The notes under the pieces were generated by a model. It was not told the origin of the DNA. It saw only the letters and a list, made by a program, of their open reading frames with translations, and searched no databases. The translations under genes and the position numbers were made by a program. Positions 2,287-61,864 of a DNA stretch of 64,000 bases are shown in pieces; within the stretch, counting starts at the first letter, position 1; the number at the start of each line of letters is the position of its first letter. The stretch spans positions 4,526,001 through 4,590,000 of the forward strand of contig UYFQ01000001.1 in NCBI GenBank assembly GCA_900617105.1, in the 5' to 3' direction. This DNA is from Hydrurus foetidus (lineage: Eukaryota).

Positions 2287-3032
2287 TGTTCCTCCCCGAG
2301 GTAAGCGGCTTGCACACCAGCATCTGAGCGAATCTCTAAGGGGGTGCCGCTGGCAATCACTTGGCCATTGACCATCACCGTCAGTTTGTCTGCGAGCTGG
2401 AACACCGCATCCATGTCATGCTCGACCAGCAAAATGCCGTGGTCTTTTTTAATCGCCAGCAACAGTGCCACCATGCGTTCAGCCTCAACTGCGCCCATGC
2501 CTGCCAGCGGTTCGTCTAGCAAAATCACTTGAGGTTCGGTCGCCAGTGTCATGGCAATTTCTAGTTGGCGTTGCTCGCCGTGGCTAATGGTGCCAGCAAC
2601 GCTTTTAACCCTATTTTTAAGGCCAGATAGCTCTATAGCCTGTTCAATACGGGCGCGAGCAGCTATGAATTGCGTAGCGTTTGACAACCACCTATGCGCT
2701 TGCGGTTCGCGTGACTGCGCTGCCAGGTGCACGTTGTCCCATACAGTAAACGGCAAAAAGATATTGGTCTTCTGGTAGCTGCGGCCCAAGCCCTGGCGAG
2801 AGATTTTCTCGGGCGTCCAGCCTGTGATGTCGGTGTTGCCAAGTGCGACAGTGCCCGTAGTCGGCGGCAAGTCACCTGACAGCAAATTGGTCAGTGTTGA
2901 CTTACCCGCGCCGTTGGGGCCGATCACGGCGTGAATGTGGTTGCGCAGCAGGTCGATTGACACGTTGTCAACTGCGGCCAAACCGCCGAAGCGTTTGGTC
3001 AAGCCCTTTGCTGAAAGCAGAACTTCACTCAT
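2283..3032 (-). CDS. LIV-type ABC transporter ATP-binding subunit (LivG-like)
   Basis: GPNGAGKST, LLDEP, VEHDM, C-terminal VQAAYLG. Confidence 0.93.
   Translation of the reverse strand: MSEVLLSAKGLTKRFGGLAAVDNVSIDLLRNHIHAVIGPNGAGKSTLTNLLSGDLPPTTGTVALGNTDITGWTPEKISRQGLGRSYQKTNIFLPFTVWDNVHLAAQSREPQAHRWLSNATQFIAARARIEQAIELSGLKNRVKSVAGTISHGEQRQLEIAMTLATEPQVILLDEPLAGMGAVEAERMVALLLAIKKDHGILLVEHDMDAVFQLADKLTVMVNGQVIASGTPLEIRSDAGVQAAYLGEEQ
2614..2679 (+). repeat. 66-bp dispersed motif copy 1 (inside livG-like CDS)
   Basis: Core GGGCGCGAGCAGCT at 2651; TAGC at core+24. Confidence 0.8.
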
Positions 3033-4050
3033 GATCTGCTTTCTTGCGCGTCATGAATTTTTCAACCAGTCCCAAAATACCGCGCGGCGCAAACACCACC
3101 AGCAGCACGATGAAAAGGCCCATCCACAACTGCCAGTGCTTGCCCAAATTCACCTTGCCCAAACTGGTAGTGAAGGTCGGCAAGTCTTTGAACACATGCA
3201 GCAAATACTCAAACGCAAACGCGCCCACAATCGCGCCGGAAAAGTTGCCCATGCCGCCCAAAATCACCATCATGATGGCATGTGCGCTCATGTGAAAACC
3301 CATCAATTCAGGGTTGATGTAACCAGTTTGTGCGCCCCACAAATAACCCGCCAGCCCAGCCAGCGCCCCGGCCACAGTAAATGCCGCCAGCTTGTAGCCA
3401 AACACGCCGTAACCCATGGCGCGCATGCGGTGCTCGTTGACGCGAATGCCGCTTAGCGTGCGGCCAAACGGGCTGAACAGCAGGCGGCGTAAAAAGACGT
3501 AAGTGACCAGCAGCGCGGCCAGTGTGAAGTAGTAAAGCGCCCGCTTGTTGTCCAAATCAAAAGGTACCCAGCCAAAAATCGATGTGCTGGGTTTGAAGTT
3601 GATGTAAAGCCCGTCCGAGCCGCCCAACACCTTGTTGTCAAAGAACAGATAAAACACCATCTGCGCAAACGCCATGGTGACCATGATGAAGTAAATGCCG
3701 TGTGTGCGCACCACAAAAAACCCAATGATGAGTGCAGCCAAGCCTGATGCCAGCACAGCCACGGGCAGCGTCCACCACAGGCTGGCAGCCTCACCCTGCG
3801 GTGTGAGAAAAGCCAGCGCATAACCCGCCAGCCCAAAGTAAGCCGCGTGGCCAAGCGACACCAGACCGGTCACGCCTTGCAGCAAGTCCAGGCTCATGGC
3901 GAAAATCGCCATGATCATCATGCGTGTGACCATCTCGGTATAAAACGGCGTGCCAACGAAAGGGAAGGCAAGCAGGGCGACGAGGCCCATGCCCAGCACC
4001 AGCTTGATGCTGACTGGCAGTACTTCCAAATTCGCTTCTTGCGAGCTCAT
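3025..4050 (-). CDS. LIV-type ABC transporter permease (LivM-like)
   Basis: G..GLVSLGHAAYFG motif, hydrophobic. Start placed at ATG 4050, overlapping the upstream stop, rather than at the ORF-track start. Confidence 0.9.
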   Translation of the reverse strand: MSSQEANLEVLPVSIKLVLGMGLVALLAFPFVGTPFYTEMVTRMMIMAIFAMSLDLLQGVTGLVSLGHAAYFGLAGYALAFLTPQGEAASLWWTLPVAVLASGLAALIIGFFVVRTHGIYFIMVTMAFAQMVFYLFFDNKVLGGSDGLYINFKPSTSIFGWVPFDLDNKRALYYFTLAALLVTYVFLRRLLFSPFGRTLSGIRVNEHRMRAMGYGVFGYKLAAFTVAGALAGLAGYLWGAQTGYINPELMGFHMSAHAIMMVILGGMGNFSGAIVGAFAFEYLLHVFKDLPTFTTSLGKVNLGKHWQLWMGLFIVLLVVFAPRGILGLVEKFMTRKKADHE

Positions 4051-4910
4051 TGTTTGAACAAGCCTTCGGGCTTCCAAAGCAGCACCGCCGCCATCAACAT
4101 GTAAACCAACATGCCTGACACGGACGGCAGCAGCACCTTGCCAAACGTATCGACCAAGCCCACCAGCAGCGCCGCAATCAGTGCGCCGCGCACCGAGCCA
4201 ATGCCGCCAATCACCACTACCACAAAGCACATGATGAGCACCTGTGAGCCCATGTTGGGGTAAACGCTGGCAATCGGTGCGGCGATCATGCCTGCGACTG
4301 CGGCCAGGCCAACGCCGAGTGCAAACACTGTCGCGTGAATCAGTTTGATGTTGATGCCGAGTGATTCCGCCATGTCGCGGTTAAACGCGCCTGCGCGGAT
4401 TTTCATGCCCAGGCGGGTTTTTGAAATTAGCAAATACAAACCAATCGCTAACGCAATGCAGACTCCCGACATGAAGAGGCGATACACGGGGTACGACAAG
4501 TTTTCAGTCAGCGGAATTGATGCACTGAGAAGCGCAGGAATCGCCACGCCATGCACATCGTCGCCCCAAACAATCGAGCGCAGCTCTTCAAAAATATAAA
4601 TCAAACCAAACGTAAGCAGCACTTGGTCAAGGTGATCGCGTTTGTAAAAGTGCCTGAACAGCAGCCATTCAAGCGCCAAGCCAAAAGCAACGGCCAGCAC
4701 CGCGCCCAACAAAATAGCCAGCGTCAAGCTACCAAAAGCGGAGCTAAGCGACCACGCCAAATACGCACCCAGCATGTAAAAACTGCCATGCGCCAAGTTC
4801 ACCACGCCCATGATGCCGAAAATCAGCGTCAGGCCCGCAGCCAGCATGAACAGTAGCAGGCCGTATTGAACGCTGTTGAGCAGTTGAATCAGGAATTGAG
4901 CCAAGTCCAT
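4047..4910 (-). CDS. LIV-type ABC transporter permease (LivH-like)
   Basis: GLTLIFG.MGVVNLAHG and VVVIGGIGS motifs. Confidence 0.92.
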   Translation of the reverse strand: MDLAQFLIQLLNSVQYGLLLFMLAAGLTLIFGIMGVVNLAHGSFYMLGAYLAWSLSSAFGSLTLAILLGAVLAVAFGLALEWLLFRHFYKRDHLDQVLLTFGLIYIFEELRSIVWGDDVHGVAIPALLSASIPLTENLSYPVYRLFMSGVCIALAIGLYLLISKTRLGMKIRAGAFNRDMAESLGINIKLIHATVFALGVGLAAVAGMIAAPIASVYPNMGSQVLIMCFVVVVIGGIGSVRGALIAALLVGLVDTFGKVLLPSVSGMLVYMLMAAVLLWKPEGLFKQ

Positions 4911-7990: not shown

Positions 7991-8056
7991 ATTTCGGGAG
8001 TAAATCGGCAGCTAGCCCAATAGAAACAGGCGCGACCAGCTCCTGAATTTATAGCG
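7991..8056 (+). repeat. 66-bp dispersed motif copy 2
   Basis: TAGCCCAAT…AGGCGCGACCAGCT (8028)…TAGC. Confidence 0.8.
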
Positions 8057-8247
8057 ATTAACTTTGCGTGGTTTGCCGGGGTCGCCCGGCTGCGAGTCAC
8101 TTTCTTTTGCTTCGCCAAAAGAAAGTAACCAAAGAAAAGGCGACCCGCAGTCTGGGGGGTTTTTGGGGTCAGAGCCCAAATTCGCCGAGCCTTTGGCTCG
8201 CCCTTCGGGCGTAGTGCTTTGCACTGCAGCGAAATTGGTGTCTGACC

Positions 8248-9705
8248 CAATACTGTTCAGTTAGTAAAATTTGAAGTAAACTTGTATTCCAGTTGCATCA
8301 CCAACTGGAGGCTTCATGGCAAGAACCAAAGCAGTGCTACCCACGGGCACACGAATCGCAGACTACTTAAGCGTCGGCCTGCTGGCTCAGGTCTGCCCGC
8401 TGGCCAAGATTCACCAAATACTTCAAGACACTGGCAGGCAGTCCCAAAGACAGCGTGACTTGCCCGCCCATGGCGTTGTTTACTACGTCTTGGCTCTCGG
8501 GCTTTACATGGGCGTGGCTTACGAAGAAGTGCTGCGTTTGACCCTTGAAGCAATGAGCTTTCTAGGCTCACCCATCAAGCGCGAAATCACCAAATCAGCC
8601 CTGTCCCAGGCGCGCAGCCGCCTGAGCTGGCAAGTTATGGAGCGCCTGGCCAATGAGTGCTTGATGCCGATAGCCCAGCCGCACACGAAGGGTGCCTGGT
8701 TCAAAGGAATGCGCCTGGTCAGCGTCGATGGCAGCACACTGGACTTAGCCCACGAAAGCGCCAACATTGAGGCCTTTGGCGGCCCGACCGCTAATGTCGG
8801 TGTCGCAGGCTATGCGCAACTGCGCTTTGCTGGATTGGTAGAGGGCGGCACGCACGTCATGTTCGCATTAGCCCATGGCGCGTATACCGACAGCGAGATC
8901 ACCTTATTTGACAAGCTATTGCCCAAACTAAAGCCCGACATGCTGCTGCTAGCCGACCGGTACTTTCTGGGCTACAAAGCATGGGCAAAGGCGCGCCAGA
9001 CAGGCGCTCAGTTGCTGTGGCGAGCCAAAAAGAACAACATACTGCCAGTGGATCACGCGCTGCCTGATGGCTCATTCCTGTCGCACTTAAATCCAAGCCG
9101 CGGCAACAAAGACACCACCTTGCAAAGCTTGCCTGTCAGAGTGGTCGAGTACTTCATTGATGGCGACCCCCAGGCCGAGCCGCTGTACAGGCTGGTAACA
9201 AGTTTGCTCGATCCTGAAGTCGCAACTGCGCACGAGCTTGCACAGGTGTATCACGAGCGCTGGGAGATTGAGACGACCCTCAAAGAGATGAAGACTCATC
9301 TGCGGGGTGCAAGGGTGGTGCTTCGCAGCAAGACGCCAGACTTGGTCAGGCAAGAGTTCTATGGGTTGTGGCTGGCGCACTTTGCGGTGCGCCGCCTGAT
9401 GCATGAGGCAGCGCTGCAAAAGGACATTGATCCCGATGAGCTGTCGTTTAAAAAGAGTCTTCAAATCGTGCGCTGCAAGCTGCCCCATGCTGGGGCTGTT
9501 CCCCCCTGAGCGCTATGCAATTTGGTATGCAGAGGTGATCAACTGCGTAGCCCGCGCCAAATCTGTCAGTTCACGAGGCAAAAGAAACCCGAGGGTGGTC
9601 AAAAGACGAACCAGCTACTATCCTTCGAGAAAAGGCGATGAGCCCTTGAATGTGCTGATTCAAACTGTCATTCGAGTTAAAAATACTTCTAACTGAACAG
9701 TATTG
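8248..9705 (+). mobile_element. IS4-family insertion sequence, 1458 bp
   Basis: 17-bp perfect terminal inverted repeats CAATACTGTTCAGTTAG / CTAACTGAACAGTATTG; 10-bp target duplication GTGTCTGACC at 8238-8247 and 9706-9715; internal DDE transposase. Confidence 0.95.
8316..9509 (+). CDS. IS4-family DDE transposase (may extend to 9696 by +1 frameshift)
   Basis: VDGS, LADRYF and the YHERWEIETTLKEMK (Y-x2-R-x3-E-x6-K) IS4 signature. Confidence 0.95.
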   Translation: MARTKAVLPTGTRIADYLSVGLLAQVCPLAKIHQILQDTGRQSQRQRDLPAHGVVYYVLALGLYMGVAYEEVLRLTLEAMSFLGSPIKREITKSALSQARSRLSWQVMERLANECLMPIAQPHTKGAWFKGMRLVSVDGSTLDLAHESANIEAFGGPTANVGVAGYAQLRFAGLVEGGTHVMFALAHGAYTDSEITLFDKLLPKLKPDMLLLADRYFLGYKAWAKARQTGAQLLWRAKKNNILPVDHALPDGSFLSHLNPSRGNKDTTLQSLPVRVVEYFIDGDPQAEPLYRLVTSLLDPEVATAHELAQVYHERWEIETTLKEMKTHLRGARVVLRSKTPDLVRQEFYGLWLAHFAVRRLMHEAALQKDIDPDELSFKKSLQIVRCKLPHAGAVPP

Positions 9706-9855: not shown

Positions 9856-9921
9856 ATTTAGGGAGAAAGTCGGCCTCCAGACCAATCGATATAGGCGTGA
9901 GCAGCTCCTGAATTAGAAGCG
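9856..9921 (+). repeat. 66-bp dispersed motif copy 3
   Basis: AGACCAAT…AGGCGTGAGCAGCT (9893)…AAGC. Confidence 0.75.
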
Positions 9922-9948
9922 AATGCCGTCACTAAAATCAAGCAGTGA

Positions 9949-10130: not shown

Positions 10131-11741
10131 CTAAGCAGACGCCCGCAACTTGAACCGCTGAATCTTCCCCGTCGCCGTCTTCGGCAGCTCCCCTACAAAC
10201 TCAAACCAGCGAGGGTATTTGTACGGCGCCAGGTGCTGCTTGACGTGCATTTTCAGCTCGTCAACGCTTGCGCTTTGACCTGATTTAAAAACGACATACG
10301 CTTTGGGCTTGACCAGCTCGTCTGCGTCTTGCACGCCTATCACGGCCACTTCAAGCACGGCGGGGTGCGTCATCAAACAGGCCTCTACTTCAAACGGTGA
10401 CACGTAAATGCCGCCGACTTTCAGCATGTCGTCGCTGCGGCCGCCGTAGGTGTAGTAGCCGTCTGCATCTAACGTGTACTTATCACCGCTTTTGGTCCAG
10501 TCGCCTGCAAAGGTGGCTTTGGTTTTGGCGCGGTTGTTCCAGTACATGATGGCGGACGTAGGGCCGCTGATGTGCAGCTCGCCAATTTCGCCCACCGCGC
10601 AGTCTTTACCGTCGTCGCCGACTATGCGCAACGCGTAACCCGGCACAGCTTGGCCCGTGGTGCCGTAACGCACTGCGCCGGGGCGGTTGCTTAAAAAGAT
10701 GTGCAGCATCTCAGTCGAGCCAATGCCGTCCAGGATTTCTACGCCGTAAGCGGCGGTGAATTTTTTGCCGATTTCAGCGGGCAGTGCCTCACCCGCGCTG
10801 GTGCACAGTCGCAGGGCGACTTCGGTTTTAGCGGGTCGGGCGGGGTCCGCCAGCAACGCGGCGTACAGCGTGGGCACGCCATAAAAAATAGTCGGCTTAA
10901 AGTCTTTGAGAATGAGAAACACATCCATCGGCGTGGGTCGGGCCGGCAGCAATACGGTGGTGGCACCGACTGCCATGGGGAAGGTCAGCGCGTTGCCCAG
11001 GCCGTACGCAAAAAACAGCTTGGCGGCTGAATAAACAATGTCCGAATGCTGTATGCCCAGCACGCCGCGCCCATACAACTCGGCAGTTTGAATCAGGTGG
11101 CTGTGCAAATGCACTGTGCCTTTGGGAGTGCCGGTTGATCCGCTGGAATACAACCAAAAGCAGATGTCATCCGCTGAGGTATCGGCAGATGTATCTGCTA
11201 TGTTTTGCGTAGCTGCTTGCGCCCGAATCAATTGGGCTAGAGGCTGATTTAATACTGAATTTTGGCCTGCGTTGTCGCTTTTTTCCTCTCCCGCAACAAT
11301 GACTGTTTTTAAGGTGTCGATGTGGCCGATCAGCGGCTCAAAAGCAGGCAAAAGCGCACCGGAAACAACCAGGCCCTGCGCCCGCGAATCACGCAGCATG
11401 AACTCAAAATCAGCCGTGGTTAACAGCGTGTTGGCCGCCACGGGTACCACGCCCGCCAAAATACAGCCGAGGAAAACTACCGGCCAGTCTGGTGTGTCGA
11501 GCATGGCCACCAGCATCCGGCTTTCAGGTGCAAAGTCTTGGGCACGCAGAGCGTTGGCAAACTGGTGTGCTTGCTGGGTGAGCTCGCCGTAGCTGAGCTT
11601 GTCGCCGCTGCTGGCGTTAATGAACGCAGTTTTTTCAGGCCAGGCGGCGTTGCGCGCCAGCAGGTCGTGTGCTGCGTTGTAGCGCCGTGGGATGGTGATG
11701 TGCGGCGGTTGAACTCGATGGTCGGCAGTGCTCAGGTTCAT
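10131..11741 (-). CDS. bclA: benzoate-CoA ligase family protein
   Basis: FWLYSSGSTGTPKG, SAAKLFFAYGLGN, DGIGSTEMLHIF and LPKTATGKIQRF motifs; lies in the box cluster. Confidence 0.92.
   Translation of the reverse strand: MNLSTADHRVQPPHITIPRRYNAAHDLLARNAAWPEKTAFINASSGDKLSYGELTQQAHQFANALRAQDFAPESRMLVAMLDTPDWPVVFLGCILAGVVPVAANTLLTTADFEFMLRDSRAQGLVVSGALLPAFEPLIGHIDTLKTVIVAGEEKSDNAGQNSVLNQPLAQLIRAQAATQNIADTSADTSADDICFWLYSSGSTGTPKGTVHLHSHLIQTAELYGRGVLGIQHSDIVYSAAKLFFAYGLGNALTFPMAVGATTVLLPARPTPMDVFLILKDFKPTIFYGVPTLYAALLADPARPAKTEVALRLCTSAGEALPAEIGKKFTAAYGVEILDGIGSTEMLHIFLSNRPGAVRYGTTGQAVPGYALRIVGDDGKDCAVGEIGELHISGPTSAIMYWNNRAKTKATFAGDWTKSGDKYTLDADGYYTYGGRSDDMLKVGGIYVSPFEVEACLMTHPAVLEVAVIGVQDADELVKPKAYVVFKSGQSASVDELKMHVKQHLAPYKYPRWFEFVGELPKTATGKIQRFKLRASA
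11196..11261 (-). repeat. 66-bp dispersed motif copy 4 (inside bclA CDS)
   Basis: Minus strand TAGCCCAATTGATTCGGGCGCAAGCAGCT…TAGC. Confidence 0.85.
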
Positions 11742-11766
11742 TTTTGTCTCCAGCGATTATTTAAAT

Positions 11767-11832
11767 CACTATCATTTTTATAGCTGCTGGAGCCCGTATA
11801 AGTTGGGCCACAGGCCTATTAGATACTCAAAA
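11767..11832 (-). repeat. 66-bp dispersed motif copy 5
   Basis: Minus strand TGGCCCAACTTATACGGGCTCCAGCAGCT…TAGT. Confidence 0.8.
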
Positions 11833-11850
11833 ATGACCTTTTTAATCATC

Positions 11851-12330
11851 TCAGGCAGTTGCCGCGCTTTGCAGCGCCTCAGTCAGCCACTGCCTGCACC
11901 ACACCGTGCCTTCTTCTTCAGGCATGGTGCCGGTCGTCGCATCGTGACACCACACTTCGCCAATGCGTTGCGCGCCCAGGTCAATCAGGCGTTCGTCAAA
12001 CTTTTTGCCGCCAAAGCAAAAGGTTTGCAGGTAGGTGCGGTCGCCCAGTGCTATCACGCCATATTTGACGTGACCTAAAAACTGGGGCGCTGCGGCCATG
12101 GATTCATACAGTGCCCGGGCGTTGTCAGGCACGTCGCCCTGCCCGTAGGTCGATGTGCAAATGAGGTATATCGCATCTTTGGCATTGTCTGCACTGAAAA
12201 CACTGATGTCGAGGTTGTCCATCAAGTCAATGTCAATGCTGTCAACCAGGTCCGCACATTCCATCTGGATCGCCTGCGCAACGTAGTCGGCAGTGCTGGT
12301 CATGGTGCCTACCAAAATTTTGAGTTTCAT
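11851..12330 (-). CDS. flavodoxin (MioC-like)
   Basis: GTMTSTA phosphate loop, TSTYGQGDVPDN and ALGD..Y..FC.GG flavodoxin motifs. Confidence 0.88.
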   Translation of the reverse strand: MKLKILVGTMTSTADYVAQAIQMECADLVDSIDIDLMDNLDISVFSADNAKDAIYLICTSTYGQGDVPDNARALYESMAAAPQFLGHVKYGVIALGDRTYLQTFCFGGKKFDERLIDLGAQRIGEVWCHDATTGTMPEEEGTVWCRQWLTEALQSAATA

Positions 12331-13301: not shown

Positions 13302-15001
13302 ACGCCATGACTGAGCCGCTTTTGTTCAAACAAACCATCAGCGGCGTAGAGCGCGACATGGTCAGCTTTGCCACCCACCCGGCTAAATACCAGCACTGGA
13401 CGTTGTCAGTTGAAGGCGACGTGGCCAGGCTAAAACTCGACATCAATGAAGACGGCGGCATCAAACCCGGCTACAAACTGAAACTGAACAGTTATGACCT
13501 GGGCGTGGACATTGAACTGCACGACGCGATCAACCGCATTCGGTTTGAACACCCCTCCGTCAAGGTGGTGGTGTTCGAGTCAGGCAAAGAAAAAATCTGG
13601 TGTTCAGGCGCCAACATCTACATGCTGGGCGTGTCCACCCACGGCTGGAAGGTGAACTTTTGCAAGTTCACGAACGAGACGCGCAACGGCCTGGAAGATT
13701 CATCAAAGCATGACGGCTTGCAGTCGATCGCATCCGTCACTGGCGCATGCGCAGGCGGCGGCTACGAGCTGGCGCTGGCGTGCGACCGCATCATCATGGT
13801 CGATGACCGCTCATCTACCGTCAGCCTGCCTGAAGTGCCGCTGCTGGGCGTGCTGCCGGGCACAGGCGGCCTGACCCGCGTGACTGACAAACGCAAGGTG
13901 CGCCGCGACCTGGCAGATATTTTTTGCACCACATCTGAAGGCGTGCGCGCTGACCGCGCCAAAGACTGGAAGCTGATTGACGCGCATGCCAAGCCGCAAG
14001 GGTTTGGTGAATTGCTTGCTACTGAAATAGAAGCTGCTCGCGCCCGTTCTGCAAGGGATGGAGGCTTAAAAGGCATCGAATTAACAGCTTTAAAGCCCTT
14101 GATTGATGATGCTGGCTACCACTACAGTTTGGTCGATGCGCAGATTGACCGCACCAGCCGCATCGCCACGCTCACGGTCAAAGCGCCAGCGGCTGCGATT
14201 GAGTCCACGCCTGAAACCATTGAAGCGGCGGGCGCCAACTGGTACCCGCTTAAACTGCAACGTGAACTCGACGACGCGATCTTGAACCTGCGCACGAACG
14301 AGCTGGAAGTCGGCACCTGGGTCATCAAAACCCACGGCGATGCAGCACACGTCATTCAGATGGACGGCGTGCTTGAAAAACTAAAAACCCATTGGCTGGT
14401 GAAAGAAACCACAGGCGCGCTACGCCGCACGCTGGCCCGGCTAGATGTGACGAGTCGCTCACTGATTGCATTGATTGATTCAGGCTCGTGTTTTGTCGGT
14501 ACGTTTTATGAACTAGCCCTTGGCTGTGATCGTATTTACATGCTGGACTTGCCCGATTCGCCAGAAGCAGCACCTGCCTTGCAGCTAAGCGTCGCTAACT
14601 TCGGCTGGTTCCCCGCAGTCAACGGTTTAACGCGTTTGCAAACCCGCTTTTATGAAGACGATGCAACGATTACCCAGCTGAAAAACCTGAACGACAGTTC
14701 GCTTCGTGCCGACCAAGCATTGGCACTCGGGCTCGTCACGCTGACGCCTGACGACATCGACTGGGAAGACGAAATCCGCATCATGCTGGAAGAGCGCGCC
14801 AGCCTGTCGCCAGACGCGATGACGGGCCTGGAAGCATCGCTGCGTTTCCCCGGTAAAGAGACGATGGAAACCCGCATTTTTGGCCGCTTGTCTGCTTGGC
14901 AGAACTGGATTTTTATTCGCCCCAATGCGGTGGGCGAAGAGGGCGCACTCAAATTGTTTGGCACAGGAAAAAAAGCCAAATTCGACTGGAAGAGGGTGTA
15001 G
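13298..15001 (+). CDS. boxC: 2,3-epoxybenzoyl-CoA dihydrolase
   Basis: YKLKLNSYDLGVDIEL, KVNFCKFTNETRN and RLSAWQNWIF motifs. Confidence 0.95.
   Translation: MNAMTEPLLFKQTISGVERDMVSFATHPAKYQHWTLSVEGDVARLKLDINEDGGIKPGYKLKLNSYDLGVDIELHDAINRIRFEHPSVKVVVFESGKEKIWCSGANIYMLGVSTHGWKVNFCKFTNETRNGLEDSSKHDGLQSIASVTGACAGGGYELALACDRIIMVDDRSSTVSLPEVPLLGVLPGTGGLTRVTDKRKVRRDLADIFCTTSEGVRADRAKDWKLIDAHAKPQGFGELLATEIEAARARSARDGGLKGIELTALKPLIDDAGYHYSLVDAQIDRTSRIATLTVKAPAAAIESTPETIEAAGANWYPLKLQRELDDAILNLRTNELEVGTWVIKTHGDAAHVIQMDGVLEKLKTHWLVKETTGALRRTLARLDVTSRSLIALIDSGSCFVGTFYELALGCDRIYMLDLPDSPEAAPALQLSVANFGWFPAVNGLTRLQTRFYEDDATITQLKNLNDSSLRADQALALGLVTLTPDDIDWEDEIRIMLEERASLSPDAMTGLEASLRFPGKETMETRIFGRLSAWQNWIFIRPNAVGEEGALKLFGTGKKAKFDWKRV
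14017..14082 (-). repeat. 66-bp dispersed motif copy 6 (inside boxC CDS)
   Basis: Minus strand TTTTAAGCCTCCATCCC…ACGGGCGCGAGCAGCT…TAGC. Confidence 0.75.
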
Positions 15002-17042: not shown

Positions 17043-17079
17043 AGCCGGCTGTGCGCTTTGCGTACAGCTGGTTTTTTTT
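17043..17079 (+). terminator. Rho-independent terminator
   Basis: GC-rich stem-loop followed by T8 after yegP. Confidence 0.7.
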
Positions 17080-17139
17080 ATGGGTTTTAGGGGTTTAGGC
17101 CTTCAAATACGGGCGCAAGCAGCTACTAAAGGGATAGCA
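17074..17139 (+). repeat. 66-bp dispersed motif copy 7
   Basis: AATACGGGCGCAAGCAGCT (core 17111)…TAGC. Confidence 0.8.
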
Positions 17140-17144
17140 AAAAT

Positions 17145-19008: not shown

Positions 19009-19074
19009 ATTTCAGGTAAAAATTGGGCTGCGACCCAATAAATACGGGTGCGAGCAGCTCCCCTATTTATAGCA
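19009..19074 (+). repeat. 66-bp dispersed motif copy 8
   Basis: ACCCAATAAATACGGGTGCGAGCAGCT…TAGC. Confidence 0.85.
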
Positions 19075-19086
19075 AACTAAATCTGC

Positions 19087-29683: not shown

Positions 29684-30435
29684 ATGCAACACAAAAAAAT
29701 CGTTATTTTGGGAACCGGCGGCACCGTTGCTGGCATGGCGTCCCAAGCGGCCAGCCATATTGACTACACAGCCGCCCAGCTGGGCGAAAACCAAGTGGTG
29801 ATAGCCATCAGAGGGTTAAAAACACATGCAGGCGTGTTGACTGAGCAGCGTGCACAAATTGACAGTAAGGACATGTCTTTTAAAGTTTAGACCGCATTCG
29901 TCAGTTGTGTGCAGCACCCACTGGCCAAATAAGATGTTCAACGCATGGTGATGTCTTATGGCAGCGACACACTCTAAGAAACCTTTGACTCTGGCGGTGG
30001 GGGCGGCATCGACTACCTAAGGAAATGCGCCTAAAGTTAACATACAATTGGCCGTTAGCCCAATATAAACAGGCGCAAGTAGCTATCTAAAACATAGCAA
30101 TTTTGGGGCAACCTCACCCTTGACCATGAATTGAAATCGTTATGAATTACGCGGGAGTCAATGGGGCCGTGGTTGATGTGTTGCTTGCCCGCGGCGTGCC
30201 AGGGCTGGTCGTGGCGGGTACTGGTGACGGCATCGTCCATCAAGCTTCGGCGGCTGCTTTGCTGAGAGCGCAGACCCAGAATGCGCCGGTGGTGCGGGCC
30301 ACGCGCTGCACGCAGGGCAGGGTACTGGCAAGAGTCGATGATCGCTTGCCCATTTTATGTGCGCTAATTCCGGTCAAGGCACGAATTGAGCTGATCCTCA
30401 GCTTGATGCTCACCAGCAGTTACCCGGCGCAATAG
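29684..30435 (+). pseudogene. L-asparaginase pseudogene
   Basis: ILGTGGTVAG, then IDSKDM, in-frame stops and a degenerate SYGSDTL*ET (normally THGTDTLEET); separate C-terminal fragment GLVVAGTGDG..VVRATRC. Confidence 0.85.
30034..30099 (+). repeat. 66-bp dispersed motif copy 9 (inside asparaginase pseudogene)
   Basis: TAGCCCAATATAAACAGGCGCAAGTAGCT…TAGC. Confidence 0.82.
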
Positions 30436-33256: not shown

Positions 33257-34297
33257 TCACTCGGTTGGCAGGCGCAAGGCTTTTTCCAAGGCCGTAAAAA
33301 ACGCAGGCTCTGGGGTAAAAAGCAGCGGAACCGCCAAAACCCGCACGTCAGGGCGCTGCGCCAATTGGAAGATTTTGACGGCGTCTTTTTCGGTACACAG
33401 CACGGTCAGATGTGCTTCGCCGAGCCGCTTCAAGCTCGCCAAGTCAAAGCGACTGAAATCAGCATGATCAGGCATCGCCACCGTTCGGCTGAGCGATAAA
33501 CCCTTTGCGCGCAGCATGTCAAAAAAAGCTTCGGGGTGAGCAATGCCAGCTAACGCGATCAGCACGGCTTGGTTAGCCTGACTCGTTTGCAGGCTGGCTA
33601 GGGGAACCCGCGTACCGTTTGCTGCGACAGCATGGCCAGCCAGCTCGCGCCGCGATACAAACCCCGAAAAAGCCGGTTTAACACCCGTGTGCAAAACCAA
33701 AGGTGCCGCGCTTTGCCCGTGTAGCGGCCATGGCTGGCGAAGTGGCCCAGCCGGCAGCAGCCAGCCGTTGCCCAAGCCGCCGTCATCAAACACAACAACA
33801 TTCACCGTGCGCGACAAGCGCAGGTGTTGCAGCCCGTCATCGCAGATGAGCAAGCGCGTTTGTGGGTAGACTGCCAGCAGAGCTTTGGCTGCCGTAAGCC
33901 TGTCAGTTGCTACAAATACAGGAGCTGCTCTCGCCCGTTTTATAAGGGCTGGCTCGTCGCCAGACTCGTCAATGGGCGTGTTTTCAAGCACTTCCTGGCA
34001 GTCTGAGCGGTTTCGCCCGTAACCGCGTGACACCACTCCTACCTTGATGCCTTGGTTTGAAAAATAAGCCACCAGCGCCATCACCAGCGGTGTTTTTCCG
34101 CCGCCGCCAGCCACCACGTTTCCAACAACGATGGTGGGCACACCCGCTTGTTTCACAGAACAAATGCCGCGTGCGTACAGCCAGGCTCGCAAGCTAATGA
34201 GTGCGCCATAGAACTGCGCAATTGGCCACAGCGCACAGGCCAGTGGGCCGCGGCTTTTCCAGGCGCGTTGCAAGGCAGAAGTTAACAATGAGCTCAC
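33257..34297 (-). CDS. lpxK: tetraacyldisaccharide 4'-kinase
   Basis: VGN..GGGGKTP, SRGYG, GDEP, DDGLQH, TEKDAVK. Confidence 0.95.
   Translation of the reverse strand: MSSLLTSALQRAWKSRGPLACALWPIAQFYGALISLRAWLYARGICSVKQAGVPTIVVGNVVAGGGGKTPLVMALVAYFSNQGIKVGVVSRGYGRNRSDCQEVLENTPIDESGDEPALIKRARAAPVFVATDRLTAAKALLAVYPQTRLLICDDGLQHLRLSRTVNVVVFDDGGLGNGWLLPAGPLRQPWPLHGQSAAPLVLHTGVKPAFSGFVSRRELAGHAVAANGTRVPLASLQTSQANQAVLIALAGIAHPEAFFDMLRAKGLSLSRTVAMPDHADFSRFDLASLKRLGEAHLTVLCTEKDAVKIFQLAQRPDVRVLAVPLLFTPEPAFFTALEKALRLPTE
33908..33973 (-). repeat. 66-bp dispersed motif copy 10 (inside lpxK CDS)
   Basis: Minus strand CAGCCCTTATAAAACGGGCGAGAGCAGCT…TAGC. Confidence 0.75.
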
Positions 34298-43193: not shown

Positions 43194-43197
43194 ATTT

Positions 43198-43263
43198 TGC
43201 TACATTACTTATAGCTGCTCGCGCCCGTATTTATTGGGCTATAGGCTTATTTGATACTCCAAA
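43198..43263 (-). repeat. 66-bp dispersed motif copy 11
   Basis: Minus strand TAGCCCAATAAATACGGGCGCGAGCAGCT…TAGC. Confidence 0.9.
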
Positions 43264-43284: not shown

Positions 43285-44757
43285 ATGGCTTCCCACACCT
43301 TTTTATGGCACGACTACGAAACCTTTGGCTTGAACCCACGCCGTGAGCGACCATCGCAGTTTGCGGGCATTAGAACCGACGCTGAGCTCAACGAAATTGG
43401 CGAGCCTGTCATGCTGTATTGCCAGCCCGCCAATGACTATTTGCCAGACCCAGCATCGTGTTTGCTCACCGGCATCACGCCGCAAATTTGCTTGGAGCGC
43501 GGTGTGCCCGAGTACGAATTTGCAGCGCAAATCGAAGCGCTGCTGGCCGCGCCCGATACCATTGGCGTGGGCTACAACTCGATTCGGTTTGACGACGAAG
43601 TCACCCGTCATTTATTCTGGCGCAACCTGATTGACCCGTACGCGCGTGAATGGCAAAACGGCTGTGGCCGTTGGGACATTCAAGACGTGGTGCGCATGGC
43701 CTACGCGTTGCGGCCGGAGGGCGTCGTATGGCCAAGCAAGCCTTATGACCGCAAGCCGAATGACGCAACCGCTACACGTCCAAGCTTCAAGCTCGAAGAC
43801 CTGGCACGCGCCAACGGCTTGCTACACGAAGCCGCGCACGATGCGCTGTCAGACGTGCGCGCAACGATTGCGCTGGCCCGCCTGATTCGCACGGCACAGC
43901 CCAAGCTGTTTGAGTTCTGCCTGAGCCTGCATAAAAAAGATCGTGTGGCTGCAGAGCTGGGCTTTCCGACCAGCCCGCAAACCGCGCAGCCGTTTTTGCA
44001 TGTGTCGGGCATGTTCCCGCCCGAGCGCGGCTGCCTGGCCGTCATGTGGCCGCTGGCCACGCACCCGAGCAACAAGAACGAGTTGCTGGCTTGGGACTTG
44101 GCGCACGACCCGAGCGAGCTGCCGCTGCTGGACATTGCCACGCTGCGCCAGCGGCTGTTTACCAAGCAGTCTGATTTGCCTGAAGGCGTGCAGCGCTTGC
44201 CCATCAAATCCGTGCATTTAAACAAGTCACCGATGGTGGTTAAAAAGCTGAAAACTCTGACTGACGAGATGGCTGCCAGGTGGAACATTGACATTGATGC
44301 AGCACTTGCCAATGCCGAAAAAGCCCGAGCATTACCCGACATGAGCGCCATTTGGCCCGACCTGTTCAATCGCCCATCCGTTGCCGCGCCAGATGTAGAC
44401 GAAGACCTGTACGGCGGCTTCATAGGCAACGCCGACCGCCGCCGTTTGAACCAGCTGCGAGAGTTGTCGCCCGCAGAGTTGGCAGTCAGCCGAGTCGGGT
44501 TTGACGACGACCGATTGGCCGAGCTGGTTTTCAGATACCGCGCGCGTAATTTTCCGCAGACGCTGAACGAGGGCGATCAGGAGCGCTGGGAAGCGCATCG
44601 AGCTGCGCGCCTGCTTGAAGGCGAAGGCGGAGCGCGCAATGTCGATGCGCTGTTTGCGCAGATAGACGAGCTGCAGGAAACCGCTGACGAGCGCGGGGAG
44701 GCGATTTTGGGGTCGCTTTATGACTATGCGGAGTTGATTGCGCCTGAGGCTAATTGA
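43285..44757 (+). CDS. sbcB: exodeoxyribonuclease I
   Basis: WHDYETFG, GYNSIRFDDE, AHDALSDV (DEDDh). Confidence 0.95.
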   Translation: MASHTFLWHDYETFGLNPRRERPSQFAGIRTDAELNEIGEPVMLYCQPANDYLPDPASCLLTGITPQICLERGVPEYEFAAQIEALLAAPDTIGVGYNSIRFDDEVTRHLFWRNLIDPYAREWQNGCGRWDIQDVVRMAYALRPEGVVWPSKPYDRKPNDATATRPSFKLEDLARANGLLHEAAHDALSDVRATIALARLIRTAQPKLFEFCLSLHKKDRVAAELGFPTSPQTAQPFLHVSGMFPPERGCLAVMWPLATHPSNKNELLAWDLAHDPSELPLLDIATLRQRLFTKQSDLPEGVQRLPIKSVHLNKSPMVVKKLKTLTDEMAARWNIDIDAALANAEKARALPDMSAIWPDLFNRPSVAAPDVDEDLYGGFIGNADRRRLNQLRELSPAELAVSRVGFDDDRLAELVFRYRARNFPQTLNEGDQERWEAHRAARLLEGEGGARNVDALFAQIDELQETADERGEAILGSLYDYAELIAPEAN

Positions 44758-44817
44758 TATATAAATTGGGCTGTAACGCAATAATTACGGGCGCGAGCAG
44801 CTCCTGAATTAATAGTG
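44752..44817 (+). repeat. 66-bp dispersed motif copy 12
   Basis: GGCTGTAACGCAATAATTACGGGCGCGAGCAGCT…TAGT. Confidence 0.85.
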
Positions 44818-44922
44818 ATTGAGCTGCTGTTCGAGGTCGCGACTTAATCCAAGCAGATTGCACCTGGTAAGCATTAGCCTCCTAGATTTCGACTGAAGTG
44901 GGTTAAGCGCAGACTCTGGTTT

Positions 44923-47462: not shown

Positions 47463-47477
47463 TTAAGTATGAATATT

Positions 47478-47543
47478 TGCTATATAAATAATAGCTGCTT
47501 GCGCCCGTATTTATTGAGCTACAGGCCTAAAAGATCTCTATTT
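47478..47543 (-). repeat. 66-bp dispersed motif copy 13
   Basis: Minus strand TAGCTCAATAAATACGGGCGCAAGCAGCT…TAGC. Confidence 0.9.
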
Positions 47544-54825: not shown

Positions 54826-54843
54826 GTTTTCAAGTCAAATATC

Positions 54844-54909
54844 AGTGTCGAAAATAATAGCTGCTCGCGCCCGTATTTATTGGGCTACAGGCTTATTTAA
54901 TATCGAATT
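54844..54909 (-). repeat. 66-bp dispersed motif copy 14
   Basis: Minus strand TAGCCCAATAAATACGGGCGCGAGCAGCT; terminal TAGC lost. Confidence 0.88.
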
Positions 54910-55959: not shown

Positions 55960-56025
55960 ATTTATGCATAAAATAGCACTGTAGCCCAATTGATACGGGC
56001 GCAAGCAGCTATTAAATACATAGCG
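55960..56025 (+). repeat. 66-bp dispersed motif copy 15
   Basis: TAGCCCAATTGATACGGGCGCAAGCAGCT…TAGC. Confidence 0.9.
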
Positions 56026-56145
56026 TAAAGTGGGCTGGCGGTGGTTAACGCGTGCAGCGCGTTTTTAATTGCAACGGTTATTCACCTAGCCATTCATCAC
56101 GCGATTCGACCCGCCATGACACTTGCTTTGTAGTAAAACCTATCT

Positions 56146-57971: not shown

Positions 57972-58037
57972 AATTGAGCTTATTTTAAGGCTGTAGCCCA
58001 ATTAATACGGGCGCAAGCAGCTCCTAAATACATAGCG
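57972..58037 (+). repeat. 66-bp dispersed motif copy 16
   Basis: TAGCCCAATTAATACGGGCGCAAGCAGCT…TAGC. Confidence 0.9.
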
Positions 58038-58041
58038 TATT

Positions 58042-58503
58042 TCAAGCCGCAAGCAGCTTGGAAATCACCCGCCAGTGCTGCGGTGTGACTGGCGTAATTG
58101 ACAAACGGTTGCCTTTTTTCAGCACCAGCAAGTCAGCCAACGCCGGCGTTTCGCGCAACTCGGTTAGCCCCAAGTTTCGGGTCTTGCGAATCACGCGAAC
58201 ATCGACCAACACCCAGCGCGGCTCGGCCGGTTTTGATTTGGCGTCAAAGTAATGCGAAGCCGAATCAAACTCGGTTGGGTCAGGGTAGGGCGCAGAACTC
58301 ACTTCAGCTATGCCAACAACCCCCGGCTCGGCACAACTTGAATGATAAAAAAGCACGCCATCGCCAATCTGCATGTCGTCCCGCATGAAGTTGCGGGCCT
58401 GGTAGTTGCGCACACCGACCCAAGGCACCGTTGCGTTTTTAGCGGCCAGCGCATCGTCCACCGAGCATTCGCTGGGTTCGGACTTCATGAGCCAGTACTT
58501 CAT
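58042..58503 (-). CDS. EVE domain protein
   Basis: YWLMKSEP, W.GVRNYQARN, FYHS, RLSITPV. Confidence 0.93.
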   Translation of the reverse strand: MKYWLMKSEPSECSVDDALAAKNATVPWVGVRNYQARNFMRDDMQIGDGVLFYHSSCAEPGVVGIAEVSSAPYPDPTEFDSASHYFDAKSKPAEPRWVLVDVRVIRKTRNLGLTELRETPALADLLVLKKGNRLSITPVTPQHWRVISKLLAA

Positions 58504-58892
58504 TCGCCAAACTCCGGACGTTCAAACTTGAAAGCCAGCTGCCGGTGGTGCCGTATGGACAACAGGTAGGTAACCGACTGGTCTTGCAGCACGGTATAGA
58601 GCACCAAATAGTCACCATGCAAATATTCGCGCAGCTTGTCTGCGGCGCCTGCTGGCAGCGCAGCAAGCTGCACCAGCGCTTCGGCAGACTGTGGCGGCTT
58701 GTCAAGGTAACGGCGGCCCATCAGTGGAAAGCGGCGCAGGTTGGGGATGACTTTGGTACGCAAACCTGCCAGCAACTTATCGAAAGCTGGCATTGCGTCG
58801 GCTTCAGTTAAAAAAAGCTCAATTGCAGACAACCGATTTGAGAAACTTTCCGTCAGCTCTACACGGCACAAAGCCTGAGTTGGCCTAATCAC
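58500..58892 (-). CDS. RelE/ParE family toxin
   Basis: V..TESF…L..FP.MGR…REY..GDY.VLY…LLSIRH.RQ; downstream of the Phd antitoxin. Confidence 0.82.
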   Translation of the reverse strand: MIRPTQALCRVELTESFSNRLSAIELFLTEADAMPAFDKLLAGLRTKVIPNLRRFPLMGRRYLDKPPQSAEALVQLAALPAGAADKLREYLHGDYLVLYTVLQDQSVTYLLSIRHHRQLAFKFERPEFGE

Positions 58893-58898
58893 GTTTTG

Positions 58899-59225
58899 TC
58901 AGATTCCAACACGGCTTTTAGCTGGCTTGCTTAGATCTAGCGCGCGTCGACGTTGCAACTTGGCCAGTGCCGCGTCAGCGTCCTGCGTGCGCCCGGCGGC
59001 AATGTCGGCAAGCCCACGCCGCGCATCGCCAATTAGCAGCAGGTGAATGTGCTCCCGCTCAAGCTGGTGATAGTAGTCCAGCCTATTCGCGTCTATCAGC
59101 GCAACGTAGCTCTCGCCATTTTTGGTGATGATCTTTTCAGCACCGGCTTTCACCTGAATCGCCAAGTCAGACAAATTGGCCCGTGCTTGGGAGAAGGGAA
59201 TGACGTCGCTGGCTTGGAATGACAT
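58899..59225 (-). CDS. Phd/YefM family antitoxin
   Basis: SQARANLSDL…EKIITKNG..VALI; start at ATG 59225. Confidence 0.85.
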   Translation of the reverse strand: MSFQASDVIPFSQARANLSDLAIQVKAGAEKIITKNGESYVALIDANRLDYYHQLEREHIHLLLIGDARRGLADIAAGRTQDADAALAKLQRRRALDLSKPAKSRVGI

Positions 59226-59334
59226 GAAGAACTCCTTTTCTGTGTACCGTATTGTGTGCAGTATATTGTGCAATAAAAAGTTGGCTTTCAAGATTTTTTT
59301 AGCTTTTCAAGCCACCTCACTAACTTTCGGCCAT

Positions 59335-61734
59335 TCATCGCAAAAAGCCCAAGCTAAACACCTGGGGGCGCAATTTTTCGCTCAATACTTGGTAAGCCGC
59401 CTCCATCGGGCTGAAGTTGACGGGGGCCGTATCGCCACTTGAATTGCGCGCCGCCAGTGCATTGCGAATTTGGTACCAACCCACGTCAGGGCGATTCAGC
59501 TTGTAGGTGTCGCGCACCGTGCGCACATCGGTGTGGGCAAAGTAGCCTTGCCACAGGTCGCGCCCGGCATTGAGCACTGCCTGCGCTTCAGTTGACAAGG
59601 CCAACCCTGCCAGGTACTGCACCATAAAGTCGGATTCAAATCGGTCAGGTGCGCCTACTTCGGCCTCGGTGAAGGGGATGAAGTGGTTGACGATGGACCA
59701 CTTCCTGTTTTTCCATTCAAGGTCGTTGGCGCTGGCGGTTCTGTTGCAACGGTTAAAGAGCATCCAGATTAGGCAGTCGTTTTTGAATTGGTCTGGTATT
59801 GGCTCGATGGGCTGCAGGAATTGGTCGCGGTCATTCAGCCAAGTTGGGCGAACTAAGCGGCGTACTGAGAAAACAATTGCAGCTTGCCAAAGGTTTTCTT
59901 TGGTAATAAAAAAACCACGGGCACTACCGTAGCCAGAGGAAAAAATCACCGTTTGCTGCTCGGCATGTTGCAAATCATTTCCACCAGACAACATGTAGCC
60001 TATCGCGTTATCTGCCCACTTTGTGCCCCTTAAGTCTTTGGTAGCCGTTGCTGGCGCCACCGCATTTTTCAAAGGTACCACCTCAACACTGTTCGTCTTC
60101 GGCCTTTCAAACCACTGACTCAGACATTGGCTGTTGGGGATGTTGAAAAATACTTTATCGCCTATGGCATTCGCGTCTTTGTCTAAGACCTCAGTAAGAA
60201 TTTCGGTGAATCTTTTGTTTTTACTTTGATCGGTTTTCCAAATCAGAAAACCAATAGGAAACTTTCCACTCAGCCCATCAAATGCTTGGTTATGAACAAC
60301 AAAACCGTCTAGGTACGTTGCACTCCATGCTTTCCGAAAAATCGCCAGCGTTGGTGCATTGACGTACTTCAAGGTGCTAAACATTGCAAGCGTTGCGGTT
60401 GGAATTTCTTTGGCAATTCGCGCTACAAACTGGGTAAATAGCTCATTGCTAGCTTTGCCAAACTCTGCCATCGCGGTAGCAGCAAATTTTGTCTTGGCCA
60501 CACCTGTCTTGTTTTCTGCATCGACCAAGCCTGTCGAGATGTTTTCGAAATTCGTAGCTTCCGCATAGGGTGGATTGATCAACACCAATATCTTCTTGCC
60601 CGCGGCTATCGCAGCCCGCAAAGACGCAGGCACCTTGTTGCTCAAGCTGTAGTCAATCTTGCCGTCTAGCGTGATGTCATCGTTAAGGTAGTCATACTGA
60701 AAACGCTGCGCGGCCACGCAGGTTTTGGTGGCTCTCATCACGTCAATGTCTGCCTGGTCTAGCGTAGACATATAAATGTTGCGCGGGTTGCTGTGTTTGA
60801 CCTCCAGGTTGCCTACGCCGCAGCACATGTCCCACACGATGTAGTCTTTTTGCCAGTTTTTGCCCAGCGTCTCGGTTAATTTGTCATAGGCTTTGTCCAC
60901 CACATGCAGCGGGGTGTAGTACGCACCATTGAAGCTGCGCTCGTCCAGCGGAATCAGGCTGTCTCGGCGCTCAAGCAGGTAGTCGCGGTATTCAGACTTA
61001 GGCGGCTTGTGGTAAATCGCCCAAAACTGCCGGTAGCCTTCTTTGTTGCCCAACTCGTAGTTCTTACCGCCCAGGCTAAACACTGGCGCGCCGTTTTTAT
61101 GCAGCAACTCAGCCGGCAGGTTGGCGTGAGTAGACAAGGTGCCGTCGTGCATGATGTCGGCGAAAAACAGCAGGGCATAGTCCTCTGGCTCAACGCCTTT
61201 AATTTCCTGCCCCACCATGGCCACCCATTTGTCAAATACCTGTTTCAGGTTGTCGGGTGTGATTTGCGTGCGCAGAATGTCGCCAGATTTGATGGCGGCT
61301 TTGACGGTGCTGATGAACTCGTCTTCGTGCGTGGAGATTTTGAAGGATACAAAGTGCGCGCCAATATGCGCAGAAATTTCGTCGAGCGCTTCTTGCGGGT
61401 ACTGGCTGGCAGACTTGCCCCATTTGACGGTTTTTTTGGCTAAAAAAGGCAATACGTCGGTGCTTTTCATCAGCGCCGCTTTTTGGGTGTCGATCACTGC
61501 CAAAAACGGCGGTACCGCTTCACCCTTGTTTAACGCCACCTGCACGTAATGCAGTAGCTGGGTGAACATTGCATAGCTTGAAGTTTTGCCGGTGTCTTTA
61601 GCCTCAAACCAGATCTCTTTGGTCTGGATATCAATCAGGCCTTTGGTGTAGCCCTTGAGCCCCAAAGCCTTTATGTAGGCATCTTTAACGTCTTCTTCGC
61701 TCTTGGCGGTTTGCAGTTGGGTGTGTAAGGTCAC
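59335..61734 (-). CDS. Type IIG-like fused restriction endonuclease / N6-adenine methyltransferase
   Basis: N-terminal E..D..EAK…Q..Y PD-(D/E)XK pattern, then GAYYTP (motif X), WDMCCGVGNL (motif I), NPPY (motif IV) and a C-terminal TRD-like region. Start is GTG 61734 or ATG 61797. Confidence 0.75.
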   Translation of the reverse strand: MTLHTQLQTAKSEEDVKDAYIKALGLKGYTKGLIDIQTKEIWFEAKDTGKTSSYAMFTQLLHYVQVALNKGEAVPPFLAVIDTQKAALMKSTDVLPFLAKKTVKWGKSASQYPQEALDEISAHIGAHFVSFKISTHEDEFISTVKAAIKSGDILRTQITPDNLKQVFDKWVAMVGQEIKGVEPEDYALLFFADIMHDGTLSTHANLPAELLHKNGAPVFSLGGKNYELGNKEGYRQFWAIYHKPPKSEYRDYLLERRDSLIPLDERSFNGAYYTPLHVVDKAYDKLTETLGKNWQKDYIVWDMCCGVGNLEVKHSNPRNIYMSTLDQADIDVMRATKTCVAAQRFQYDYLNDDITLDGKIDYSLSNKVPASLRAAIAAGKKILVLINPPYAEATNFENISTGLVDAENKTGVAKTKFAATAMAEFGKASNELFTQFVARIAKEIPTATLAMFSTLKYVNAPTLAIFRKAWSATYLDGFVVHNQAFDGLSGKFPIGFLIWKTDQSKNKRFTEILTEVLDKDANAIGDKVFFNIPNSQCLSQWFERPKTNSVEVVPLKNAVAPATATKDLRGTKWADNAIGYMLSGGNDLQHAEQQTVIFSSGYGSARGFFITKENLWQAAIVFSVRRLVRPTWLNDRDQFLQPIEPIPDQFKNDCLIWMLFNRCNRTASANDLEWKNRKWSIVNHFIPFTEAEVGAPDRFESDFMVQYLAGLALSTEAQAVLNAGRDLWQGYFAHTDVRTVRDTYKLNRPDVGWYQIRNALAARNSSGDTAPVNFSPMEAAYQVLSEKLRPQVFSLGFLR

Positions 61735-61798
61735 GGCTTGCGATGTTGTCGGTAGGCTTATTGAACTGAAATTTACTGGGCTACAGATAAATTTCATT

Positions 61799-61864
61799 TG
61801 GTATGAAAGTTATAGCTGCTCGCGCCCGTACTTGTTGGGCAAGCGGCCTATTTAGTACCGAAAA
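61799..61864 (-). repeat. 66-bp dispersed motif copy 17 (overlaps upp 3' end)
   Basis: Minus strand TTGCCCAACAAGTACGGGCGCGAGCAGCT…TACC. Confidence 0.85.

Follow-up and report, generated by a model that had tools for sequence, protein, structure and literature searches.

The 64,000-nucleotide stretch analysed here (the window; positions 4,526,001 to 4,590,000 of contig UYFQ01000001.1 in assembly GCA_900617105.1, deposited under the eukaryote Hydrurus foetidus) has an ordinary Comamonadaceae gene content, and it raises the question of what a motif of 66-68 bp is for that recurs in it 17 times. An earlier note on this DNA had interpreted the motif as a protein-recognised site retained through selection or molecular drive, either as an uptake signal or as a gyrase or nucleoid wrapping site, and not for a miniature inverted-repeat transposable element (MITE). 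We found that the motif is real, family-wide and unlike any catalogued repeat. It is very probably a maintained double-stranded DNA signal that is read by a protein, and, by analogy with known systems, we see about an even chance that Comamonadaceae use it as a DNA uptake signal during natural transformation.

Geometry and range of the motif

A seed search followed by an iterated profile recovered 17 copies between 2614 and 61864, nine on the forward and eight on the reverse strand. Leave-one-out scores of these copies were 35-69 bits, compared with a maximum of 4.1 in 20 windows from an order-3 Markov model. A family-wide profile, trained mostly on other genomes, returned the same 17 copies at 40-76 bits, with the rest of the window at or below 14; in 960 kb of Markov sequence its top score was 12.4 and none exceeded 14. 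Hit scores were bimodal, mostly 40-70 bits with few at 12-25 (two of 133 at 12-20). The consensus of 138 copies, ttt-N7-AAAt.gGcCt.tAGCCCaa..aa.acggGCGCaAgcAGCTAT.aAatt.ATAGCaa, amounts to about 55 bits, and its core is base-specific, with AGCT and TAG nearly invariant.

Spacing within the motif was fixed. Of 116 strong right halves, 110 had the left half-site at offset 0, as a strong match in 102 cases; the TAGC end lay at offset 0 in 100 of 100, and almost no indels were seen among copies. In the genome nearest to the window, G001 (2.7 Mb, 81% complete), a pattern with the spacer one base longer matched once, against 389-486 matches with the correct spacer. The A/T content of the motif oscillates with a peak period of 10.75 bp, its A/T profile is roughly two-fold symmetric about position 9, and dependence is mainly between adjacent bases. 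The motif also holds two pseudo-palindromes, GCTAT-N7-ATAGC and GCSC..GCGC, and GTAG adjoins GCCC-N9-GGGC in some copies. The copy number and strand split given in the earlier note, its constant GCCC-N9-GGGC spacing and its A/T tracts at roughly helical-turn intervals were all recovered; TAGC does lie at a constant distance, but this is 37 nt from the start of GCCC, the 24 nt reported being the distance from the GGGC half.

The motif is restricted to one family. In G001, 452-601 pattern matches were found, and the reversed control gave 0-2. A scan of 1/64 of the genome collection returned 127 loci, nearly all from Comamonadaceae (Polaromonas, Acidovorax, Rhodoferax, Simplicispira, Curvibacter, Comamonas and others), and about 25,000 stretches are estimated overall; none of 245 genomes from other families in the order exceeded eight matches, which is the control level. 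Among 301 genomes of the family, 65 had at least 18 matches, 39 at least 100 (maximum 951) and 223 three or fewer, and among 151 genomes of one genus, 100 had at least 60, 46 had 13 or fewer and five lay between. These tallies include genomes G146, G332 and G482, which are flagged as unpublished, and no claim is made on these alone. Acidovorax temperans DSM 7270 had 546 matches. On a tree of Tex from 30 of the 42 panel genomes, the motif-rich or motif-poor label needs three changes, most poor genomes being basal and two nested, so that the rich and poor groups represent few independent contrasts. Lineages use different dialects (GCAC for GCGC, GCCGCT for GCAGCT, differing central spacers), and that of the window appears to be the dialect of Polaromonas loci. 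Approximately 130 viral contigs carried an exact match; the five examined hold 2-8 copies, and four of these are proviruses. A low-sensitivity blastn search of plasmid and phage collections with one copy, a degenerate 81-mer, returned nothing meaningful, and an Rfam scan of the motif gave no match.

Fragments of the motif appear in a 2017 list of potential novel motifs, under the genomes of Acidovorax ebreus, Polaromonas naphthalenivorans and Rhodoferax ferrireducens, with no function given in the accessible parts of that paper (Tong, Schliekelman and Mrazek, PMC5217627). The pairs GCTTAT-N5-AAGCG and ATAGCT-N22-CAAAAG listed there fit the motif at the right distances, as do the first 30 of 140 Rhodoferax pairs, and the same convergent bias is reported. 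In those parts the fragments are kept separate for each genome and are not joined, and overprinting, family range and function do not figure. A description of the whole motif was not found in the literature searched, outside which lay subscription papers, figures and bioRxiv supplements, where an account may exist; RepRanger makes no mention of these genera.

Origin and maintenance of the copies

Four of the 17 window copies lie wholly within genes, three lie over a stop codon and ten are intergenic. In the complete chromosome of G377, of which 800 kb was sampled and annotated with a simple purpose-made gene caller, the 112 copies were 32 genic, 12 partial and 68 intergenic, and a further 380 kb gave 16, 10 and 27, respectively; the genic fraction is about 30%. 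Most of the 32 genic copies (27; 14 + 13) fell in the two frames with the fewest stops.

Genes that bear a copy were compared with their homologues at the motif sites. Orthologues of lpxK aligned over the site showed no matching insertion, and the site scored in a graded manner in relatives (52, 33, 20 and 17). A second, independent motif site was found in lpxK of five other genomes, again with no residues added. BoxC aligned without gaps to its solved orthologue PDB 2w3p (546 versus 546 residues). At the LivG site no difference in length was seen in 119 of 120 close homologues, most of which have the motif-like peptide as well; a homologue lacking the motif was 3-4 residues longer. The motif-bearing benzoate-CoA ligase had 5-9 extra residues relative to solved orthologues, not 22, and at the nine distinct genic sites for which a homologue without the motif was available, the net change in length ranged from -10 to +16 residues and was never +22. 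As judged from these alignments, genic copies are shown to have formed in place over native codons by substitution.

The copies behave as independent samples of one profile and not as descendants of each other. Pairwise identity among 101 copies averaged 54% and reached at most 79%, within a first-order Markov null; no near-identical, recent copies were found among them, and long-range dependence was in modest excess (z 4.3). Target-site duplications, which the earlier note had also failed to see, were at or below the null rate for k=3-8. The ends of the consensus are not complementary, so that terminal inverted repeats are lacking, and complementary covariation was absent in 20 of 21 putative stem pairs across 138 copies.

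Orthologous copies are conserved. G001 contigs covered 13 of the 17 window copies, and all 13 were present at the same site without gaps. The 48 substitutions between the two changed the summed score by +12 bits, compared with -105 expected on one neutral branch, and the shift per substitution was 1.92 bits versus 2.63 for random substitutions (P=0.001). Conserved columns had fewer substitutions than variable ones (8/234 versus 40/650), which is not significant alone (P=0.13). No contig joint skipping the copy at 57972..58039 was found in four metagenome runs, nor any skipping a copy in window 42.5-62.4 kb among the 15 of 204 joints listed, the latter result being uninformative.

Copies are over-represented genome-wide on both strands; their density is near 140 per Mb in G377 and reaches 266 per Mb in the window. 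In G377, copies were borne by 25 of 63 convergent, 44 of 304 tandem and 9 of 97 divergent spacers (P=6e-7), with no orientation relative to genes (16 sense and 16 antisense; 22/22 in tandem spacers) and no origin-to-terminus gradient. Leading-strand copies in G377 numbered 68/112 (P=0.03) and 54/95 (P=0.22), with 41:16 in one 400-kb stretch, and no strand switch was visible in G464. The 57 copies of one uninterrupted 400-kb stretch were spaced more evenly than under a null preserving spacer class (coefficient of variation of the gaps 0.73 versus 0.94, P=0.017); dispersion of block counts did not reach significance. No copy was found in nine 20-kb stretches (179 kb) from secondary replicons. 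The 79 kb behind eight rRNA operon ends held seven, or 88 per Mb versus about 140, which is no excess. Three of 40 20-kb blocks were empty, and these corresponded to an O-antigen-type cluster, an Rhs/secretion island and accessory genes. By these measures the motif marks core chromosomal DNA, as opposed to secondary replicons. Motif presence correlated weakly with native codon use (rho 0.28, P=0.03).

Uptake signal or another DNA-borne signal

We read the motif as a protein-read site and not a MITE because of the overprinting, the orthologous conservation and the lack of target-site duplications, covariation and recent copies, and on this the earlier note holds. Between the two functions that it proposed, uptake signal or site for gyrase or a nucleoid protein, we can state a leaning only: the absence of copies from secondary replicons, the lack of an rRNA-operon excess, the base-specific core and the lineage-wise absence of the motif incline us toward uptake. 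The results it had named as contrary (terminal inverted repeats or target-site duplications, empty versus filled insertion sites, a catalogued repetitive extragenic palindrome, REP) did not turn up.

If the motif serves uptake, a component of the type IV pilus or of the uptake machinery would bind and bend it, and fragments with a better site would be taken up at a higher rate and supplant the resident allele through homologous recombination. Permissive positions that already resemble the motif would then be driven toward it, which is molecular drive, and lineages without the uptake bias would lose, or never gain, sites. Molecular drive, powered by biased uptake and recombination, is expected to rewrite a site independently at many loci in spite of protein constraint, and such drive has been described for uptake signal sequences (USS) and DNA uptake sequences (DUS) (PMC1939737, PMC3458573, PMC3630211, bioRxiv 10.1101/2025.10.24.684340). 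Two members of the family, A. temperans and A. facilis, are competent for natural transformation (PMC4212676).

In genomic behaviour the motif resembles both known classes, of which it may be regarded as a candidate member only. Like the 29-bp Pasteurellaceae USS, with a core and two helically phased T-tracts (PMC3458573, PMC1939737), it has a core with phased A/T tracts and occurs on both strands, and it shares with USS a family-restricted range, an origin by point mutation in coding sequence, frame bias and permissive sites. It differs from USS in length (66-68 bp), in information content (about 55 bits), in pseudo-symmetry and in density (140-260 per Mb), and it is mostly intergenic with few weak sites. 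With Neisseriaceae DUS (PMC3630211, bioRxiv 10.1101/2025.10.24.684340) it shares lineage dialects, inter- and intragenic copies, stop-limited frames and the existence of lineages without the motif, whereas DUS are 10-12 bp long, often form inverted terminator pairs and are tied to ComP. A fuller version of the uptake reading, to which we give slightly less than an even chance, is that Comamonadaceae have a third, independently evolved uptake-signal family, with a 66-bp pseudo-symmetric bendable site and a receptor unrelated to ComP/ComN, lineage-switched and rewriting conserved enzymes across Polaromonas, Rhodoferax, Acidovorax and Comamonas.

Several observations weigh against uptake. Although comEC, comEA and FimT-like pilins are present in G001 and its relatives, they are not discriminating: comEC was found in 81 of 82 near-complete genomes of the genus, motif-rich and motif-poor alike, FimT-like pilins were found in 41 of 42 genomes with sequences not sorted by motif, and ComEA and the PF16732 and PF12019 pilins occur in rich and poor genomes alike. 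A ComP-type receptor co-distributed with the motif was not found among ComP-family pilins, FimT, ComEA and comEC. Enrichment near competence genes was rejected, since a copy lay near comEA in 20 of 23 loci and near fimT in 10 of 15, and near the control gene tex in 19 of 20. Sequence-specific uptake has been reported for one relative, Verminephrobacter eiseniae. This species has a single, unrelated motif pair in Table S2/S3 of PMC5217627, a study whose method does detect Pasteurellaceae genomes, and therefore probably has few copies. Its transformation is pilus-dependent and dropped only tenfold when foreign DNA was present in 1500-fold excess, and the passages of PMC4212676 on Comamonadaceae competence name no uptake sequence. 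Weak sites are scarce, whereas known uptake sequences are accompanied by a graded excess of mismatched sites (PMC1939737), and the motif is rarer than USS and more than twice as long. Inverted pairs are rare, with four close opposite-strand pairs among 112 copies. In seven of 12 gene pairs the motif-bearing spacer was longer than all motif-less orthologous spacers, by variable amounts, so that DNA may have been gained or lost along with intergenic copies, and the copy-bearing loop of comEC exceeds that of distant homologues in length.

Three features of these competence genes were also observed. An ATD.G peptide, which corresponds to the translated end of the motif, is retained in the ComEC loop of genomes whose DNA no longer scores there (loci L180, L181, L184 and L185), and is a possible motif relic. 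The Lys/Ala-rich tail of ComEA is long (to about 130 aa) in many members of the genus and short in others, and is not strictly motif-linked (L431-L450). A variable fimT-pilV-pilW-pilX-pilY1-pilE cluster, located between nrdR and the riboflavin genes, is flanked by one motif copy at either end (L212; G377:C1:3419755-3430103).

Two other readings likewise make the motif a protein-read site. In the one, which we consider unlikely, it is an intracellular architecture site, with a dimeric nucleoid protein or topoisomerase wrapping about 70 bp of bent DNA and selection keeping one site per 4-7 kb. The 10.75-bp period is that of the flanks of the E. coli gyrase motif, and both this periodicity and the rough symmetry are shared with the gyrase motif and BIME-2 (PMC6379681); the rough two-fold symmetry of the A/T profile, the favoured convergent spacers, the more even spacing than random and the covariation of adjacent bases only, as in shape readout, are in keeping with it. 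The gyrase motif, however, is 130 bp long, degenerate and enriched behind transcribed operons, whereas the Comamonadaceae motif occupies 66-80 bp and has near-invariant bases. Copies showed no excess within 10 kb behind rRNA operons, none was found on secondary replicons, no gradient runs from origin to terminus, and 46 of 151 genomes of one genus do without the motif; one more site among 600 would also seem a weak reason to rewrite enzyme codons. In the other reading, less probable still, the motif acts in another recombination route, by Chi-like protection or licensing of incoming or broken self DNA or as a start of packaging or transfer. Any biased entry or survival followed by homologous recombination would give the same overprinting, and such a route would account for the failure of pilus genes to follow its distribution. 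The 2-8 copies in some proviruses and the mild leading-strand excess in G377 point the same way, but this polarity is weak and inconsistent between samples, no candidate gene was identified, and known signals of this type are short.

An old mobile repeat (MITE, REP or RPE), dispersed through a transposase, for instance a RAYT-like HUH protein, and later partly domesticated, would account for the intergenic and convergent bias, the often longer motif-bearing spacers, the comEC loop and the bimodal scores. This reading, which we hold to be quite improbable, is largely refuted for genic copies, as these add no residues, and the copies show no excess of target-site duplications, no stem covariation, no near-identical pairs and almost no indels. 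Dispersal, intergenic bias, some genic copies and partial palindromes are shared with GTAG/CGTC REPs, REPtrons and RPEs (PMC3733652) and with BRE (PMC3110155). The REPs and RPEs, however, are inserted stem-loops, often dimers, whereas the motif is single, overprinted and without a covarying stem, and BRE are 75-91 bp long, 69% GC and tandem; BRE and GTAG/CGTC REPs were rejected as its identity on the accessible text descriptions, not base by base. The correlation with RAYT transposases that the earlier note had suggested checking did not hold. A single-copy RAYT-like gene is present in 41 of 42 genomes and some copies have GTAG beside GCCC-N9-GGGC, but this gene is also found in 15 of 16 motif-poor genomes and is flanked by its own unrelated 25-bp inverted repeats and not by the motif, and it was rejected as the mobiliser. 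The IS4 element of the window was rejected as a source, since G001 lacks it but has both of the copies that flank it. Least probable of all is an RNA element, terminator or transcription-factor operator. The two pseudo-palindromes and the many copies near gene ends would suit it, but the motif has no orientation to genes and is scarcest in divergent promoter regions; hairpin or RNA structure was rejected, given the lack of covariation, the neighbour-only dependence and folding z-scores better than -2 in only one of eight strands, and the Rfam scan agrees.

The RAYT-like HUH gene (about 233 aa) lies beside gltB and falls just under the RAYT cut-off (L240-L246). Its inverted repeats were found in five of seven loci, it is sometimes tandem-duplicated, and it looks like a domesticated TIRYT, an arrangement in which the gene has its own terminal inverted repeats (PMC3733652; see also PMC6006769).

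Sequence-specific DNA uptake has been described for two bacterial families only in the literature searched. Were the uptake reading true, a third would be added, in abundant freshwater, soil and wastewater bacteria, in which tags of self DNA would have evolved again with a very different architecture; this would explain and improve gene transfer in Comamonadaceae strains. Molecular drive could be tested directly, because motif-rich and motif-poor genomes coexist in one genus. Were an intracellular protein to read the motif instead, a 66-bp, gene-written signal in hundreds of copies would be a new kind of chromosome organiser. Either way, this is a family-wide 55-bit motif without an assigned function in the literature searched.

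Motif copies and neighbouring features of the window

Table 1 Positions and surroundings of the motif copies in the window.
Feature	Position	Strand	Context
Motif copy	2614..2681	+	inside livG-like ABC ATPase gene (2283-3032, -), antisense
Motif copy	7991..8058	+	intergenic, directly 3' of enoyl-CoA hydratase gene; common to G001
Motif copy	9856..9923	+	intergenic, IS4 transposase/benzoate-CoA ligase; identical in G001
Motif copy	11194..11261	-	inside benzoate-CoA ligase gene (10131-11741, -), sense, variable linker; also in G001 and in paralogue there
Motif copy	11765..11832	-	fills flavodoxin/benzoate-CoA ligase spacer
Motif copy	14015..14082	-	inside boxC (13298-15001, +), antisense
Motif copy	17074..17141	+	between yegP-like gene and tRNA gene (convergent); 14 substitutions versus G001, score kept
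Motif copy	19009..19076	+	directly 3' of acyl-CoA dehydrogenase gene; 16 substitutions versus G001, score kept
Motif copy	30034..30101	+	spacer upstream of lexA
Motif copy	33906..33973	-	inside lpxK (33257-34297, -), sense, over conserved DEPxLI..APVFV codons
Motif copy	43196..43263	-	between clpA and exonuclease I
Motif copy	44752..44819	+	over exonuclease I stop codon (convergent spacer)
Motif copy	47476..47543	-	over stop of LysR gene, upstream of trhO-like gene
Motif copy	54842..54909	-	fills eamA/TPR-gene spacer
Motif copy	55960..56027	+	upstream of eamA (divergent spacer); top-scoring copy
Motif copy	57972..58039	+	fills 80-bp convergent panE/EVE spacer
Motif copy	61797..61864	-	over upp stop codon; identical in G001

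The IS4-family element (8252-9702, transposase 8316-9509) sits between two motif copies, which are 397 bp apart in G001, where the element is missing. The benzoate box cluster (10131-16552; ligase, boxR, boxC and boxB) has a second copy in G001 at 85-95% identity (L175, L476), and the ligase region of that second cluster carries motif copies at the same two sites. Identity between the window and G001 is a mosaic, ranging from 88% to 99% between neighbouring segments, which suggests frequent homologous exchange or a mixed bin.

Open reading frames (ORFs) without a Pfam match were found at three places. One of 820 aa (59335-61797) has NPPY and glycine-rich motifs typical of adenine methyltransferases and possibly encodes a fused restriction-modification enzyme, and it is adjoined by a ParE/Phd toxin-antitoxin pair (58500-59291). 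The second, of 779 aa (24697-27036), lies in a region that is only about 88% identical to G001. The third (38382-38705) encodes a 107-aa Lys/Ala-rich product with internal repeats and a histone H1-like composition. The window also contains a glycine riboswitch aptamer (50805-50915) and tRNA genes at 17148-17221 and 17329-17402.

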